Shown: positions 41,099 to 49,931 of the stretch, piece after piece
How the letters are laid out: the number at the start of each line of letters is the position of its first letter
Position numbering within the stretch: the first letter of the stretch is position 1
Origin: Alphaproteobacteria bacterium
GTDB taxonomy: Bacteria > Pseudomonadota > Alphaproteobacteria > SP197
Assembly (NCBI GenBank): GCA_964291265.2
Contig: OZ219747.1
Location: forward strand, 3,072,001-3,136,000
Reading direction: 5' to 3'
Length of the DNA stretch: 64,000 bases
Translations under genes and position numbers: made by a program
Notes under the pieces: generated by a model
Told to the model about the DNA's origin: nothing
The model's database searches: none
What the model saw: the letters and a program-made list of their open reading frames with translations, nothing else

Positions 41099-41686
41099 AT
41101 GCCACGGCGCCATCACCATCCCCCCTCCGCCATGGCCCTGCGCGTCGCCGCTCTCGAGCAGCTGCTGACGGACAAGGGTTACTGTGATCCCGACACGATC
41201 GATCGACTCGTGGAGCTCTACGAGACCAGGGTCGGGCCGCACCATGGCGCCAGGGTGGTGGCGCATGCGTGGAGTGACGCCGCCTTCCACGAACGCCTCC
41301 TCGCGAACGCCTCGCACGCCATGGCGGGGCTCGGCATATCGGGCATGCAGGGCGAGAACATGGTGGTCGTGGAAAACACGTCCCATGTCCACAACGTGGT
41401 CGTCTGTACCCTGTGTTCGTGCTATCCGTGGCCCGTCCTCGGCCTGCCGCCGCGCTGGTACAAGAGCGAGCCCTACCGGGCGCGCGTCGTGCGTGAGCCA
41501 CGGGCCGTGCTGACCGAGATGGGGTGTGACGTGGCGGACGACGTGGAGGTCCGCGTCTGGGACTCGAGTGCGGACCTGCGCTACATGGTCCTGCCGCAGC
41601 GTCCTCCAGGCAGCGACGATCTCACCCGCGAGGAGCTTGCCGGTCTCGTGACGCGCGATGGCATGATCGGCGTGGCCAGAGTATGA
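41099..41686 (+). CDS. nthA: nitrile hydratase alpha subunit (cobalt-type)
   Basis: metal motif VCTLCSCY; WYKS..YRAR. Confidence 0.93.
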
Positions 41687-41696
41687 CGAGAGCGCC

Positions 41697-42380
41697 ATGG
41701 ACGGCATTCACGACATGGGCGGCATGATGGGTTTCGGCGTCGTCGCGCATCAGACGGACGAGCCACTGTTCCATGACGACTGGGAGAGGGTGGCCTTCGG
41801 ACTTCTCCTTCAGGCATCGGGGAGGGTCGGCTTCTCGGATGATCACCTGCGCGCCCACATCGAGCGCATACCGCCTCTGGCCTACCTCCAGGCAAGCTAC
41901 TACGAGCGCTGGATCCGCGCGCTGGAGTCCTTTCTGGAGGAACGCGGACTCCTGTCATCGGCCGCCGTCGAGGCCTGCATGGCCGGAATGGCCGGACCGA
42001 CACGCCCCGCCGGCGGCAGGGGCGCCACTCTCGACGACATCGAGGAGGCCGTGGCAGGAGGGGCATCGACGCGGCGCGATGGCGCCGGAACGCCGGCGCG
42101 ATTCCGTTCCGGTGACCGGGTGCGGGTCCTCAACGAGCACCCGTGCCATCATACCCGTGCTCCGCGCTACACGAGGGGACGCATCGGCGAGGTCGTCCGT
42201 GATCATGGTGTCTTCGTGTATCCCGACACCCATGCCCGTGACCTCGGCGAGTGTCCGGAACACTGTTACACGGTGACGTTCGGGGCTCACGAACTGTGGG
42301 GTGCGCACACACCCCTGTCGGATGTCGTCAACGTCGACCTCTACGAGTCCTATCTCGAGGCGGTCGACCCACCCGCCTGA
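41697..42380 (+). CDS. nthB: nitrile hydratase beta subunit
   Basis: MDGIHDMGG, SYYERW, HTRAPRY, YESYL. Confidence 0.92.
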   Translation: MDGIHDMGGMMGFGVVAHQTDEPLFHDDWERVAFGLLLQASGRVGFSDDHLRAHIERIPPLAYLQASYYERWIRALESFLEERGLLSSAAVEACMAGMAGPTRPAGGRGATLDDIEEAVAGGASTRRDGAGTPARFRSGDRVRVLNEHPCHHTRAPRYTRGRIGEVVRDHGVFVYPDTHARDLGECPEHCYTVTFGAHELWGAHTPLSDVVNVDLYESYLEAVDPPA

Positions 42381-42803
42381 GGGATGCACGCGGGGATGCG
42401 TCATGGTGCTCCGGGACAGCGACAACTCACCGACGAGGTTGCCGTGATCGTGTCATGCTGAATTCCGATCACTGCCCGCCCCTGCTGACCATGGATTGAT
42501 GGCCCGCGGCGCAGGGCGCCACGGAGCGGGGCCTCGCGTTGGCGGACCCGTACGTGACGGCGGAACCTGCCTGCCTGCTCGACGATGCGCCGGCCGGCAG
42601 GAGACGACGGGGGCGATCGACGCGGTGTGCGTTTCGGCCCGGCAACCGGCCCCGACCATCCTCGATCGCCCGGTCCCCGGCGCTGCCGGGCGCGGCACGT
42701 GTTGCGGCCAGCCCGCGGACGGGTTATGGATTGCATCGATGGGATCGTTGCGCTCTTGCGGGCGTGGCGGCCTGGACTGCGCGACGGCGGGAGGACGAGC
42801 ATC

Positions 42804-45382
42804 ATGACGCGAGCGCCTCACGCGCGCGAACCCCAGAATTTCGTACCCCCCCCCCCTCAAGAGTCCGGGCGCGGGGCTGAGCCGGTGGGCGCCCTCGGGA
42901 GAACCGTCCGCCGCCTGAGCGCGGAACTCGCTGCCCTCTTCCTCATCACGCTGGCCGCCGCCCTCGCGCCCCAGGACGCACAGGCGCAGGAGAAGCCGGC
43001 GCTCACGGCAACCGCGGGTGTCGGCAGTGTCACACTCACCTGGACTCGTACCGGCAACACTGGATTTGGATATTGGGTCTACCGACAGGGGGTCACCGGA
43101 GGAGGTTACGGCGACTGGATCGATATACCGGGCGGCGCCACCATCAGAGCCCACACGGTCACAGGGTTGACCGCCGGCACCTCCTATACCTTCCAGGTGG
43201 CAAGGGCAGAAGGTACCGGTCTCAACTTTTCCGTCTTCGCTAGTGGGGGAGGGTACTCGAACGGGGCGTCAGCTACGCCGACGGCGGCCACGACCACGAC
43301 GCCCGCCGCCCCGACGAACCTGACGGCGACGGGGGCCGGCACCACACAGGTGTTGCTGACGTGGACCAAGCCGGCCGGCACGATCACCGGCTACAAGCTG
43401 CGCTACGCCAAGACACCGGCAAAGGGCAGCGCCACCTGGGCCGCCATGGCGGGTTCGGGCGCGAACACCGTGAGGCATATGGTAACGGGGCTGGAAGACG
43501 ACGCCGAATACAGTTTCATGATCCGCGCCGTGAACGCCTCCGGCGACGGCGCCGCCACGGACTGGGTGACGGCGACGCCTGCGGACAGCTGCCCTTCCGT
43601 GCTCAGCCCGACGAACCTGAGTCTCGCGCCGCGTTCGGACGGGTTTGTCGTCACCTGGACGGCGCCGACCGATGTCTTCCGCAACGGCTGGACGTTGTCT
43701 TACGGCAAGACCGGGGAAAGTTCGACCTCTGTCACCATCTCGAATGCCGCCGCGACCAGCCGCACGCTGACCGGTCTGGACGCCAACACCGAATATGAGA
43801 TCAGTCTTACAGCGACCCATTCTACTTATAATCCTTCTGCGGTCTGTCCTCCAGGCTTCCGTGTAAAAGCCACCGGCACTACCGGCGCCACCGTCGCCAA
43901 ACCCGCGGCGCCGACGGGGTTGTCGGCGGAGGCGGGCAACGGTCAGGTGGAACTGACCTGGACCGACCCGGACGACGATTCGATCACGAGGTATCAGGTG
44001 CGCCAGAAGAAGGGCGGCGCCGCCTGGGGCAGTTGGACCGCGATTCCCGATTCGGACGCCGACACCACGACCCACACGGTGACGGGTCTGACGAACGACA
44101 GCGAGTACCGCTTCCGCATCCGGGCGCGGAACAGCGGCGGCAACGGCGCCGCGTCGGCGGTGGTGGAGGCGACGCCGTCGGCGTCGGCGGCGGTTCCCAA
44201 GCCGGTGCTGAGCGCCGAAGCGGGTTACGCCAGGGTCACCCTGAGCTGGAGCGCGCTGTCGGGTGTGACGGTAGCGAGCTGGGGCTATCAGTACAAGCCC
44301 GCGGGCGGCAGCTGGATCAGGACCCGGACGGTCACGGGCGCCAGCACGACGAGCACCACGGTGACGGGACTGACGATCGGCACGGAATACACGTTCCGGC
44401 TGTTTGCGGCAGTCAGTCCCGGGGTGCAGTCGGTGTGGTCGGACCAGGTGAAGGCGACGCCGACGAATACGGTTCCCAAGCCGGTTCTGACGGCGGCGGG
44501 GGGCGATGCCTCGGTCACCCTGAGCTGGAACGCCTTGACGGGCATTCCGATCACGAGCTGGGGCTATCAGTACAAGAGCACGGCCGGCTGGAACACGACC
44601 ACGACGCTCACGGGCGCAAGCAGGACGAGCGTCCGGGTGACGGGGCTGACGAAGGGCACGGACTACACGTTCCGCCTGTTCGCGGCGGTCAGTCCCGGTG
44701 TGCAGTCGGTGTGGTCGGATCAGGTGACGGCGAAGACCGATCCGGCGGCCCCGGTGCTGACGGCGGCGACTTCGACGACGAACGGGCGGATCGACCTGAC
44801 CTGGACCCATGCCGGCGGCTCGAACGAGTTGTCGGATGCGGACGACTATGTGAAAGACGCGGCCAAGTTCCATTGGTGGAGAGCGCAGACCCGGCTGAAG
44901 GGTGAGACCGTCTGGACGGATAGCGGTCTCAACCAGGCGAGTGCCAGACAGCAACCGGGTTCTCGCAACAATCGGCTTCTGCTGAACTATCCCGACGGGG
45001 CATCGGTCGAGGTCCGGGTTCGGGCAACGGGCTATCGCATGGCGGGTGTGGCCGGGGGAACGGGGAACCTTCAGGGTCCCTGGTCGAACGTCCGTACGGT
45101 GACCTTCAAGGACGACGACACGGCGGCTCTCACGCTGACCGGGACGCCGGTGACGGTGGCGCCCGGTTCCACGGCGACCTACACGGTGGCCTTGACGAAG
45201 GCCTATGCGGGGACGCTGCGGGTGACGAGCGACGACACGGCGGCGGCGCGGGTCAGTCCGGCGAGCCTGACCTTTACCACCAGCAACTACAGCACGGCGC
45301 GGACGGTGACGGTGACCGGGGTGGCGAACGGCACGGCGGTGATCAACCACGCCTTCCGGCTGACGGGAGCTTCTGCGGATGC
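42804..45382 (+). CDS. FN3-repeat autotransporter-like adhesin, exon 1
   Basis: SD GGAGGA, signal peptide ending AQA, multiple FN3 modules (V.L.W..Y..VTGL..Y.F); ends at the intron 5' splice site. Confidence 0.85.
42846..42856 (+). repeat. C11 homopolymer in 5' end of adhesin gene
   Basis: GTA CCC CCC CCC CCT. Confidence 0.85.
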
Positions 45383-47158
45383 GTGCAGCGAGTCTAGCTG
45401 CTGTACTTGCGGGTGAAAGTCCCGCCGGCGCAATTGTCAGTTTGGCGCCGTAGCATATCCCACTGGTTTAGGGGCGACCTTGGACCAGCGAGCTGGGACG
45501 TAGAAAGCCGTTGTGGGCTGGCTGGGACACAGTGCCCAGCCGGTTCGGTCAGCCAGGGCGGCGAGCAAACCGGAGGGCCGTAGCGAAAGCGAACGATTGG
45601 ATGAAGCCACGAAATGATGCTCCCACACGAAGCTGATTTGTGGGGTGGTCGGGAATGCCAAGGGCGTGGATCCGGCCCGATGGCCAGAGTCGATGCGGAA
45701 GAACTGATGAGCACGCATCGGGTTCCCCGGGGTACAGACGGCGGCAATCCGGGACAGTACAGCAGTGAAAGGCCGGAAGGTGAGGAGGACAGACAGGATG
45801 AAGTGACCCTTGAATGTCAAGGACCGCGTCTATAACCAGGATTGGGAAAGGACGCGGAGTCCTCCTGACTGGCGGATGAGGTCGAGTAAGCGTTGACGGG
45901 CGGGACAACACAACCCGTCCCGAGCGAGGACCTCAGGGCTCAGGTGGCCTATGCGGCAGGTCAAGTCGGTACTCAGAGACCGGCACCGACCGACAGACTG
46001 CAAGGTCGAAGGACGGAGCAAACGCTCGGAGATGCCGTGGGTATGGTTGGGTCAGCCTTGACCATGGCGTGTGCGGCGGAAGGCTCCGCACCGAACTCCA
46101 AGTGGGTGCCTGATGCTTGAAGCCGTACCCGGGAAAACCGGACGTACGGAATTTTAGGGGGGCGTGCAGCGAGTCTAGCTGCTGTACTTGCGGGTGAAAG
46201 TCCCGCCGGCGCAATTCCCAGTTTGGCGCCGTAGCATATCCCACTGGTACAGGGGTGACCCTGGGCCAGCGAGCTGGGATGTAGAAGCCGCTGTGGGCTG
46301 GCTGGAACGCAGTGTCCAGTTGGTCTGGTCAGCCAGGGCGGCGAGCGAACCGGAGGGCCGTAGCGAAAGCGAACGATTGTACGAAGCCTCGAAAATGAAA
46401 TTTCCCACATGAAGCTGACTTGTGGGGTGTTGGGAACGCCAAGGGCCTGCCCCCAGCTTGGTGGCCAGAGTCGATGCGGAAGAACTGGGGAGCACGCATC
46501 GGGTTCCCCGTGGTAGAGACGACGGCAATCCGGGACAGTACAGCAGTGAAAGGCCGGAAGGTGAGGAGGACAGACAGGATGAAGTGACCCTTGAATGTCA
46601 AGGACCGCGTCTATAACCAGGACTGGGAAAGGACGCGGAGTCCTCCTGACTGGCGGATGAGGTCGAGTAAGCGTTGACGGGCGGGACAACACAACCCGTC
46701 CTGAGCGAGGACCTCAGGGCTCAGGTGGCTTATGCGGCAGGTCAAGTCGGTACTCAGAGACCGGCACCGACCGACAGACTGCAAGGTCGAAGGACGGAGC
46801 AAACGCTCGGAGATGCCGTGGGTATGGTCGGGTCAGCCTTGACCATGGCGTGTTCGGCGGAAGGCTCCGCACCGAACTCCAAGTGGGTGCCTGATGCTTG
46901 AAGCCGTACCCGGGAAAACCGGACGTACGGAATTTTAGGGAGGCTGCTGGAAACGTGGTCTATGGTAGTTCTGCGACCCCGCCCGCAATCGAAAGAGCGG
47001 TGCCGGACAAAGCCTCTGCCTACGGATGCGCGCGCCAGCGGCCTACCCGACTGCTGGAAACGTGGTCTATGGGAGAACTGCGACCCCGCCCGCAATCGAA
47101 AGAGCGGTGACGGACAAAGCCTCTGCCTACGGATGCGCGCGCCAGTGGCCTACCCGAC
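45383..47158 (+). mobile_element. ORF-less group IIB intron, outer (888 nt: 45383-46163 + 47052-47158)
   Basis: 5' GTGCAG; domain V AAGCCGTACCCGGGAAAACCGGACGTACGG (~46120-46153); 3' end CCTACCCGAC with bulged A; removal restores frame. Confidence 0.9.
46164..47051 (+). mobile_element. ORF-less group IIB intron, inner (888 nt), nested in domain VI of the outer intron
   Basis: 5' GTGCAG at 46164, domain V ~46901-46934, 3' CCTACCCGAC at 47051; EBS1 GCCCCC complements upstream GGGGGC. Confidence 0.9.
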
Positions 47159-49931
47159 GATTCCCGACGCGGGCACGGTGGACGTGACGGTGGCCGATAC
47201 GCCGGGGGTGACGGTGTCGACGGCGGCGCTGACGGTGGCGGAAGGCGGCAGCAGGACGTACACGATGCGGCTGAACACGCCGCCGTCATCGGATGTGACG
47301 ATCACGGTGGCGGGCGCGTCGGGGGACGTGACGGTGACGGGCGCGTCGCTGACCTTCACCCGGACCAACTGGAACCAGCCGCAGACGGTGACGGTGAACG
47401 CAGGCACGGACACGGACACGGCGGTGGACCCCGCCGTGACGCTGACCCACAGCGCCTCTGGCGGCGGCTACGGCTCGGTGACCATCGCCTCTGTGGTGGT
47501 GAGCGTGGCGGAGAAGGATGTGGCGCCCGGGAAACCGACAGGCCTTGCCGGCGCGGCGGGCAACGGTTCGGTGACGCTGAGCTGGACCGCCCCGGACAAT
47601 CCGACCATCACCAAGTGGCAGGTGCGGCGGAAGGCCGGCAGCGACGACTGGGGCGCGTGGGAGGACATTCCCGGCTCCGCTGCGGGCACCACCAGCTACG
47701 AGGTGAGCGGTCTGACGAACGGCACTGCCTACCAGTTCGAGGTGCGCGCGGTGAACGGGGCCGGCAACGGCGCCGGTCCGGATGCGCCGGTGACGGCGAC
47801 GCCGGCGGCGCCGGTGGCGCCCGGCGGAGGCGGCGGTGGCGGTGGCGGTGGCGGAGGCGGCACGACGCCCACCGCAGACGCAAGCGTGACGGTGACACCG
47901 ACCGCGCTGACGGTGGCGGAGGGGAGCAGTGCCGTCTACACGGTGGTGCTGGACACGGAACCCTCGGGCGAGGTCACGGTGACGGTGGGCGGCGCTTCGG
48001 GCGAGGTGACGGTGGAACCGGCGAGCCTGACCTTCACCACGGCCAACTGGGACACGGCGCAACGGGTGACGGTGCGCGCGGCCCGTGACGAGGACACGAC
48101 CGACGACACGGCGACGCTGACCCATGGTGCGAGCGGCGGGGGCTACGCTTCGGTGACCATCGATTCGGTGGCGGTGACGGTGACGGACACAACGCTCCTG
48201 CCGGTGCTGACCCTGGCGCAGGATCCGGCGGCGGTGACCGAGGGCGAGGCCATCCGCCTCGTGGTGAGCGCCGACCGGGCGCTGACGGGCAGCCTGAGGG
48301 TGAGCCTGACCCTGGCGTCCCGGGACGGCGGCGGCTTCGATGCCGGGGACGTTCCAGGCGGCCTGGGTCCGCGTTCGTTCGATGCGGTGTTCGGCGCCGC
48401 GGGGCGGCGAACGGGCGTGGTGACGATCCCGACGGCGGCCGATGCGGATGCGGAAGGCGCGGAAGCCTACCGCATCACGCTGAACGATGCGGCGGACTAC
48501 GTGGTGGGGAACGACGCCACGGCGCTTGGCGTTCTGCGCGACCGGGCGGCGGGGGCCATGGCAAGGTCGAACCGGGTGAATGCGGCGGTGCTGCCGCACG
48601 TGGCGGCGGCGGCGATGTCGCAGACCCTGGGGGCGGTGACGGGTCGCATCGAGGCGGTGGCCTCCGGCGAGGGGGGCGGCACGGTGCAGTTCGGCGCCCT
48701 GCCGTCACCGGTGGAGGACGCGTGGGCGTCGCCGCACCCGGAGGAGCCCGGCCCGAGCATGGCGGAGGTGCTGGACGGCGCCTCCTTCACCCTGGCGGCG
48801 GGCGCCGAGGGCGAGGCCTCCGCGCCGCCGCTGGCCGTGTGGGGCCGGGGCGAGTGGCTGTCGCTGTCGGGTTCGCAAGGCGGCGTGTCGTGGGACGGCG
48901 GCCTGTGGTCGGCGCAGCTGGGGGCGGACGTGCGCCTGCGCCCCGACCTTCTGGCCGGGGCGGCGCTCTCCCATGTGCGGGGCGAGCTGGACACGCAGAC
49001 GGACCAGGTGAAGGGCGTCCACGAGACCACGATCACGTCGGTGCATCCCTATGCGGCGTGGTTGCTGGCGGACGGCTCGACCCTGTGGGCGAGCCTCGGC
49101 TACGGGACCGGCGAGGTGCGGATTGCCGAGGAGGGGGCGCCGGTGATGAGCACGGACCTGGCGCAGTGGAGCGCGGCGGCGGGCGCCCGCAGCGTCCTCA
49201 TCGAGCATGCGGACCTCATCGAGGGCGGCATGACGCGCCTTGCGGTCAAGGGCGAGGGCGCGCTGGCGCGCCTGCGCACGGGGTCCGATGACGGCCTGGC
49301 GGGGCTGACGGCGAGGACGACCCGCCTGCGGCTGCTGCTGGAGGGGTCGCACGAGCACGCGCTGGCAAGCGGTGCGACGCTGACCCCGGCCCTGGAGGCG
49401 GGGGTGCGCCATGACGCGGGCGACGCCGCCGAGGGGGCGGGCCTCGAGGCCGGGGCGAGCGTGACATGGCGGGACCCGGCGGAGGGTCTGACGGCGGAGC
49501 TGCGCACGCGGCTCCTGGCGGCCCACGAGGCGGACCGTGACGAGTGGGGTGTGAGCGCCCTGGTGCGCCTCGACCCCGGGGCCGACGGGCTTGGAACCTT
49601 CCTTGCCTTCGGTCCCGCGCACGGGCGCACCGAGAGTGATCTGGGAGAACTGTTCGACCACGGCCTGCCCGCGGCGGCATCGGGTACGACATCGGCAGAG
49701 GGCCGCCTGGAGGCCGAGGTGGGCCACGGCTTCGGCCTTGCCGGTCCGGGGCCTCTCGCGGTGCTCACCCCCTGGGCGGGCTTGAGCCTGGCGGAGACCG
49801 GCGGGCGCACCCTGCGGCTCGGCACCCGCTACCGCCTCGGCGCGGGGCTCTCCCTCGGCCTCGAGGGCGCGCACCGGCCGGGGCCGGTCAGCGAAGACAG
49901 CCTCATGCTGCGCGGCGCCCTCAACTGGTAG
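47159..49931 (+). CDS. adhesin exon 2: Ig-like/FN3 repeats, Gly13 linker, C-terminal autotransporter-type beta-barrel
   Basis: in frame with exon 1 after splicing (GC|G ATT CCC = A-I-P); amphipathic beta-strand C-terminus ending LRGALNW. Confidence 0.85.

Follow-up and report, generated by a model that had tools for sequence, protein, structure and literature searches.

Sibling group II introns, one nested in the branch helix of the other and likely brought there by its own guides

The 64,000-nt stretch analysed here (the window; positions 3,072,001 to 3,136,000 of contig OZ219747.1, assembly GCA_964291265.2, Alphaproteobacteria bacterium) contains a gene for an FN3-repeat autotransporter interrupted by two group II introns, one inside the other. 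Our reading, from sequence evidence, is that this twintron consists of sibling group IIB introns without an open reading frame (ORF), that the guides of each are matched to its own insertion site, and that the inner intron likely reached domain VI (DVI) of the outer one by retrohoming with a reverse transcriptase (RT) borrowed in trans. We give it a probability of about 0.7. The gene-less inner intron likely lives as a parasite of a parasite.

Both introns are 888 nt long and form direct repeats of 94% identity, and the Rfam model of group II domain I (DI), RF02003, matches twice, 781 nt apart (68.0 and 67.9 bits; gathering threshold 49). Removing both leaves an open frame of 1,856 aa through the host gene; of three candidates for the outer 3' end only 47158 restores this frame, and a shift of one base either way fails. 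Homologous exon junctions are uninterrupted in runs X2-X4, which hold paralogous or allelic versions of the host gene (42585-49931) with the same junction and no intron. The subgroup IIB features are present, namely three exon-binding sites (EBS1, EBS2 and EBS3) and the delta-delta' pair. The introns read GUGCA...AC at their ends: the 3' end fits the AY of the group II consensus, and position 5 departs from its GUGYG (PMC4028801). Domain V (DV) is a hairpin with an AGC triad, a GAAA loop and an AC bulge, atypical in having an additional AA in its basal stem (46119-46155 and 46900-46936); basal pairing across this bulge formed in folds of family members L024o and L044 and is presumed for the outer intron here. 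DVI carries a bulged A 7 nt from the 3' end in both introns (A47045 inner, A47152 outer), and domain IV (DIV), of about 185 nt, holds no RT ORF, the longest ATG ORFs being 37 and 73 aa. RF00029 gives no match to this DV even at E up to 1; this is the model with which one large survey looked for ORF-less introns (PMC8919778), so that counts of such introns may be too low.

An earlier note on this DNA had named twelve guide and target stretches, and on re-reading the sequence all twelve lie where it placed them, with the pairings it described. Counting G-U as a pair, the inner intron matches its intron-binding sites (IBS) throughout: EBS1 GCCCCC with IBS1 GGGGGC (6/6), EBS2 UGAAAUU with AAUUUUA (7/7, one G-U) and EBS3 G46516 with U47052. 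The outer intron pairs 6/7 through EBS1, with a G-G mismatch at -2, 5/7 through EBS2, and through EBS3 (C45735 with G47159). Both EBS3 bases are indeed 352 nt after their respective intron starts. On its own site the inner set scores 6+6+1 (EBS1+EBS2+EBS3) and on the outer site 4+4+0; the outer guides likewise score 4+4+0 on the inner site. The differences between the copies do cluster in DI, as had been noticed, with 88.7% identity over positions 1-375 (DI) against 97.9% afterwards. Because the guides differ and each set matches its own site, we also share the note's view that this is not a simple duplication.

Structure modelling places the guides in loops. In a comparative fold of 15 aligned family members (RNAalifold), EBS1 occupies a 9-nt hairpin loop whose closing pair covaries (CG in nine members, UA in five, AU in one), and EBS2 and EBS3 are both unpaired, the former adjoining the Id2 hairpin and the latter a covarying helix; delta-delta' itself switches from U-A to A-U in one clade (L042/L044). 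Single-sequence minimum free energy folding found the correct EBS1 hairpin for the outer intron; for the inner one it mispaired the C-rich EBS1, a result superseded by the comparative fold.

The guides covary with their targets across the family. We collected 45 distinct complete intron/site pairs with 17 EBS1 types in the genome and by scans for pattern and similarity, leaving out partial or truncated introns and dropping six records in which the motif search missed EBS1 or EBS3. EBS1 pairs at 6/6 in 40 of the 45 cognate combinations versus 16 of 1,744 wrong flanks, and at 5/6 or better in 43/45 versus 114/1,744, the exceptions being L137 (4/6) and L153a (2/6). EBS3 is paired in 42/45 cognate and 613/1,744 non-cognate combinations (mismatches in L067, L137 and L024i), and EBS2 averages 5.3/6 versus 3.8 (tolerant register; earlier set of 35 pairs, 30 scored). 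With one pair per EBS1 type, the observed score of 112/119 compares with 62 +/- 5.6 after permutation and was reached by none of 50,000 shuffles. The proposed family of ribozymes diversified in their guides is thus borne out.

The inner intron has its IBS2 on the 3' strand of the outer DV and its IBS1 on the 5' strand of the DVI basal helix, which bears the bulged A. The earlier note saw the DV-DVI junction as the target: the recognition sequence does span that boundary, but the cut falls, in the fold, 7 nt inside DVI, directly after the 5' strand of the branch helix. Guide pairing and branch helix need the same bases, which is why the inner intron would be expected to splice first; predicted duplex energies are -12.5 kcal/mol for EBS1:IBS1 versus -9.0 kcal/mol for the basal helix. 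Since the insert follows the 5' strand, the whole 7-bp basal helix with its bulged A could still close around it.

The genome contains six twintrons, in all of which a complete inner intron, 100% identical from copy to copy, sits at the same base; this inner variant was found only in sibling DVI (6/6 copies). Five of the outer copies carry the guides of the window's outer intron (A-type); in the remaining one, T3, the flank is matched by a third set of guides. Across the six A-type outer copies, of which five host a twintron, 13 sites vary, eight of them private, and some of this variation lies 90, 106 and 84 nt away from where the inner intron is inserted; the inner copies have no variable site. 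Identical inner copies in varied outer ones point to recent homing by the inner intron. A seventh outer copy, S6 (G000:C2:3658598-3661441), has no inner intron, and an IS1634 transposase lies about 20 nt past its still-perfect DVI target. Among the A-type targets is an ISAs1 transposase, whose site is present in 10 copies, two of them filled, and T3 lies in a 34-copy repeat (15-nt motif), first guessed to be an IS66 end, a name for which a search gave no support. In one ISAs1 site two non-identical twintrons, T4a and T4b, stand head to tail (G000:C2:3769211-3772762, minus strand). The T4a/T4b tandem fits the guides: once filled, an outer site can still be matched perfectly, because the resident intron begins with a G that serves as IBS3, whereas filling an inner site removes its EBS3 match, and no inner tandem was seen. 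The twintron junction recurs in contigs of 4/4 runs of one study, possibly including the source.

The last ~68 nt of an intron stand alone at a T3-type target (G000:C2:3544635-3544718), like a 5'-truncated insertion or a deletion remnant, and further intron fragments occur at 3261256, 710235, 3580590, 417092 and 1767898 of G000:C2. In a contig of run X4, inner-type alleles flank the junction on both sides, which may reflect self-nesting, a pop-out circle or a chimera in the assembly graph.

Mobility would require an RT from elsewhere. Between 5' end and DV we found no RT in any of the 54 genome and 13 metagenome loci that carry the family DV, so the earlier description of the family as RT-less stands; it should not be read as RT-independent, a helper presumably being needed. 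RT matches in the genome number 18, of which two are fragments; the other 16 are long, intact ORFs, near-identical and all from a single group II intron family, which also has 15 ORF-less 660-nt derivatives. The RT-encoding intron itself is present in 13 full or near-full copies (a 660-nt derivative and an intron are exemplified by G000:C2 857514-858175 and 1918148-1920066, the latter with an RT at 1918375-1919994). We take this RT family to be of class E, and introns like L099, L107, L113 and L118, discussed below, of class F. The helper is probably the RT of this distantly related class-E-type intron, the only intact RT family in the genome. Five other host genomes were checked, and each has a protein 65-82% like the class-E-type RT, or fragments of such an RT, except G064, where the loci examined included only other RT types. 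This is the weakest step of the explanation: an RT that works across classes would be unusual, and the other option is that a cognate RT has been lost.

The 54 genome loci belong mostly to Paracoccaceae and other Alphaproteobacteria, plus Binatia; the DV pattern used for the scan would miss diverged members. Among 60 relatives searched, eight gave matches, all within the 22 of the same genus. Rejoining the flanks gave 41 distinct sites, 17 of which match, within 400 nt, a class-E-type RT-encoding intron (15) or the family itself (2), mostly with the match running across the rejoined junction; the other 24 have no such match, and three of these look intron-like by eye. Nesting within the family occurs at three places: DI (L128), DIV (L129, L138, L143) and DVI (the window; L127). 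The second DVI twintron (L024/L127), from another genome, lies at the homologous base, and its inner intron groups with its own outer one (support 100/99). A clade of the two DVI-targeting inner introns is rejected (p-AU 1.8e-5; guide columns omitted, 23 rows); unless each pair was homogenised by conversion, DVI targeting thus probably has two origins. Further DVI junctions numbered 0 in JGI metagenomes and were not found in 400 other genomes of the phylum that were searched. Nesting also appears to be reciprocal, as a loose end in run X3 (window 46638) is the 5' end of a class-E-type intron inserted in the family's domain II. Elsewhere we saw triple self-nesting at the DIV site of another genome with signs of recombination collapse (L138:917-2899, L129, L143), collapsed DI-site twintrons in L059 and L033, and, at L148:2145, another kind of DVI insertion, in which a family member is followed on its 3' side by the distal DVI of an F-like intron.

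Several observations weigh against the reading that we prefer. The outer intron's own site is imperfect, with EBS1 at 5/6 and a poor EBS2 match (3/6 in the -14 register, and 5/7 when shifted outwards by one base), and the second DVI twintron has a G/G mismatch at EBS3. Only seven sites in the genome score 13/13 with the inner guides, the empty DVI of S6 and six others, and as those six are unoccupied too, pairing alone cannot explain site choice; a further determinant, or homology, must therefore be involved. The copies, at 98-99% identity after DI, have evidently recombined with one another, and the inner intron could have been spread, or the tree blurred, by gene conversion. As for the helper, blastn and nhmmer detect no RNA similarity between the RT intron and the ORF-less family, by eye no shared DIV motif is evident, and published trans-mobilisation involves closely related introns (PMC2882425, PMC4424553).

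Recombination gives one alternative its force: the guides would be real, but the inner intron would have homed only once, the twintron then spreading as a unit or the inner intron passing from one outer copy to another through homologous recombination or gene conversion. Flanking homology of ~780 and 107 nt would allow this, the T3 outer copy looks recombinant (91.4% identical to the T1 outer copy in DI, 99.0% after), and relatives hold collapsed twintrons (L059, L033). We nevertheless think it unlikely, as six inner copies with no variable site contrast with 13 (eight private) in outer copies of equal length, and private outer variants persist within 84-106 nt of the insertion site; from the same pattern Mohr et al. 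concluded that the insertions were independent, and they demonstrated separate mobility (PMC2882425). Less probable still is composite splicing, in which the outer branch helix would fold around an unspliced inner intron, or borrow its DV and DVI, so that both leave in one step. The basal helix can still form and such "zombie" twintrons are known from plant mitochondria (PMC7049729), but those are degenerate inner introns in DIV, whereas the inner intron here keeps perfect guides and intact DV and DVI, its EBS1:IBS1 pairing is predicted to be stronger than the basal helix, and splicing to its 3' end would retain 107 nt, shift the frame and mismatch the outer EBS3. Tandem duplication or an assembly artefact with chance complementarity, suggested by the near-identical direct repeats, is refuted by the exact geometry of the nest with its restored frame, by the recurrence at six loci and in all four runs, and by the permutation result.

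A rival that touches the helper step only is harder to set aside, and we hold it somewhat less probable than its opposite: mobilisation by a cognate RT-encoding member of the lineage, since lost or visiting on a plasmid or phage, rather than by the class-E-type RT. The family DV-DVI weakly resembles F-like RT introns (nhmmer E ~4e-6 on L099, L107, L113 and L118), a type not found in this genome, and intron-encoded proteins usually prefer close relatives (PMC4424553). On the other side stand the lack of an RT inside members at all loci scanned (with a DV pattern that misses diverged ones), a search without significant plasmid matches and without viral ones, the RT proteins or fragments of the other host genomes (G064 excepted), and the identical inner copies, which imply recent activity in a genome with 16 intact class-E-type RT ORFs.

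Taking the twintron as the product of guided retrohoming, changes in EBS1, EBS2 and EBS3, or exchange of DI, would retarget a common ribozyme chassis, and variants aimed at conserved parts of multi-copy mobile DNA, here sibling DVI, the ISAs1 transposase and the 34-copy repeat, would gain many landing sites, with the class-E-type RT probably serving as helper in trans. In the transcript, the inner guides would compete with the outer DV and DVI helices for the same bases; the inner intron would splice first, rebuilding the outer branch helix, and, as the two EBS3 bases differ, the outer DI would be less prone to use the 3' end of the inner intron. Retrohoming and inner-first splicing are both predictions from sequence and folds. 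A bolder view, which we offer tentatively and hold to be less likely than even, is that the whole protein-free lineage is a hyperparasite that borrows the RT of an unrelated class and re-aims its guides at conserved intron parts, with three sites in its own family (the DI kappa/zeta region, DIV and, at least twice, the DVI branch helix), the exclusive choice between pairing and folding at DVI acting as a natural switch of splice order.

Table 1. Features of the twintron and its host gene in the window
Feature	Position	Strand	Basis or remark
5' exon, host gene (FN3-repeat surface protein)	42585..45382	+	ORF; Pfam fn3 E 3.8e-58
Outer IBS2	45368..45374	+	5/7 with EBS2, weak
Outer IBS1	45376..45382	+	6/7 with EBS1
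Outer ORF-less group IIB intron, 5' part (DI-DV and 5' strand of DVI basal helix)	45383..46163	+	
Outer delta' (A), partner delta U45667	45605	+	U-A to A-U in L042/L044
Outer EBS2	45615..45621	+	unpaired in consensus fold; at other A-type sites pairs AGCAUC
Outer EBS1 hairpin loop (delta 45667, EBS1 45668-45674)	45666..45674	+	folds and family covariation
Outer EBS3 (C), pairs G47159	45735	+	unpaired in consensus fold; family covariation
Outer domain V (triad AGC 46121-46123); 3' strand is inner IBS2 (46150-46156)	46119..46155	+	sequence and fold
Outer DVI basal (branch) helix, 5' strand; 46158-46163 is inner IBS1	46157..46163	+	fold
Inner ORF-less group IIB intron	46164..47051	+	genome has six identical copies
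Inner EBS2	46396..46402	+	sequence pairing; consensus fold
Inner EBS1 hairpin loop (delta 46448, EBS1 46449-46454)	46447..46455	+	consensus fold; family covariation
Inner EBS3 (G), pairs U47052	46516	+	sequence pairing; family covariation
Inner intron's own DVI site	46938..46944	+	A46941 replaces G; 5/6 with own EBS1
Inner bulged branch-point A	47045	+	fold
Outer intron, 3' part (remaining DVI; bulged A47152)	47052..47158	+	
3' exon, host gene (FN3 and autotransporter beta-domain)	47159..49931	+	in frame once both introns removed; Pfam

The inner intron's own DVI site suggested self-immunity through A46941 (own site -6.2 versus -12.5 kcal/mol; 0/6 inner copies nested), which we keep as a weak lead only: members with targets other than DVI have this A too (L096/L101, L137, L142, L148), as does L033, in the other DVI twintron it makes the match better, and L138, a variant that targets DIV, nests in itself repeatedly. 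Elsewhere in the window, a third copy of the intron's 10-nt 5' motif at 577 is probably a chance occurrence, BLAST finding no intron there, and two adjacent ORFs at 41099-42380 may encode nitrile hydratase alpha and beta subunits, judging by a motif.

With its 17 natural guide specificities on a single compact chassis of 850-900 nt, the family is useful for retargeting studies, and it offers tests of whether RTs can mobilise introns across structural classes and of how a twintron splices when the binding sites of the inner intron are the catalytic and branch helices of the outer one. Introns within introns are known, and in the full-text literature searched we found no precedent for a bacterial intron tuned to the branch helix of a sibling, which is not proof of absence; the available parts of PMC3534033 and PMC4028801 hold nothing on DVI targets. 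The general scheme of EBS-diversified families, identical ORF-less inner introns and trans-mobilisation is already published for Thermosynechococcus elongatus (Mohr, Ghanem, Lambowitz 2010, PMC2882425). There, the TeI3/TeI4 families are set apart by diverged EBS1, EBS2 and EBS3 and use an RT in trans, the ORF-less inner intron is identical in all twintrons while the outer ones differ, and targets lie in other mobile elements. The inner intron of that system sits at the start of the DIV ORF of an RT-encoding close relative, whereas in our twintron neither partner has an ORF, the inner intron targets the 3' strand of DV and the branch helix, and we found no cognate RT. The nested introns of Methanosarcina acetivorans share repeated homing into related introns, a balance with recombination and archaeal ORF-less members, but their target is the RT ORF and not the core domains of the ribozyme (Dai and Zimmerly 2003, via PMC4424553, PMC2882425). 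An inner intron in the catalytic-core DV, forcing ordered splicing, is described for the Euglena psbF twintron (Copertino and Hallick 1991, via the review PMC8393795), although that is a single fixed event between degenerate chloroplast introns with no guide-tuned mobile sibling. In lycophyte mitochondria, cox1i1149g2 also lies within a near-identical copy of itself, but it is inserted in DIV, and the inner intron is degenerate, has weakened EBS-IBS pairing and is not spliced (PMC7049729). Finally, T.e.I7/T.e.I8 of Trichodesmium is, like ours, a bacterial twintron in a protein gene; it is formed by two distantly related RT-encoding introns with the inner one in DI, and sequential splicing has been shown there (PMC4649490).

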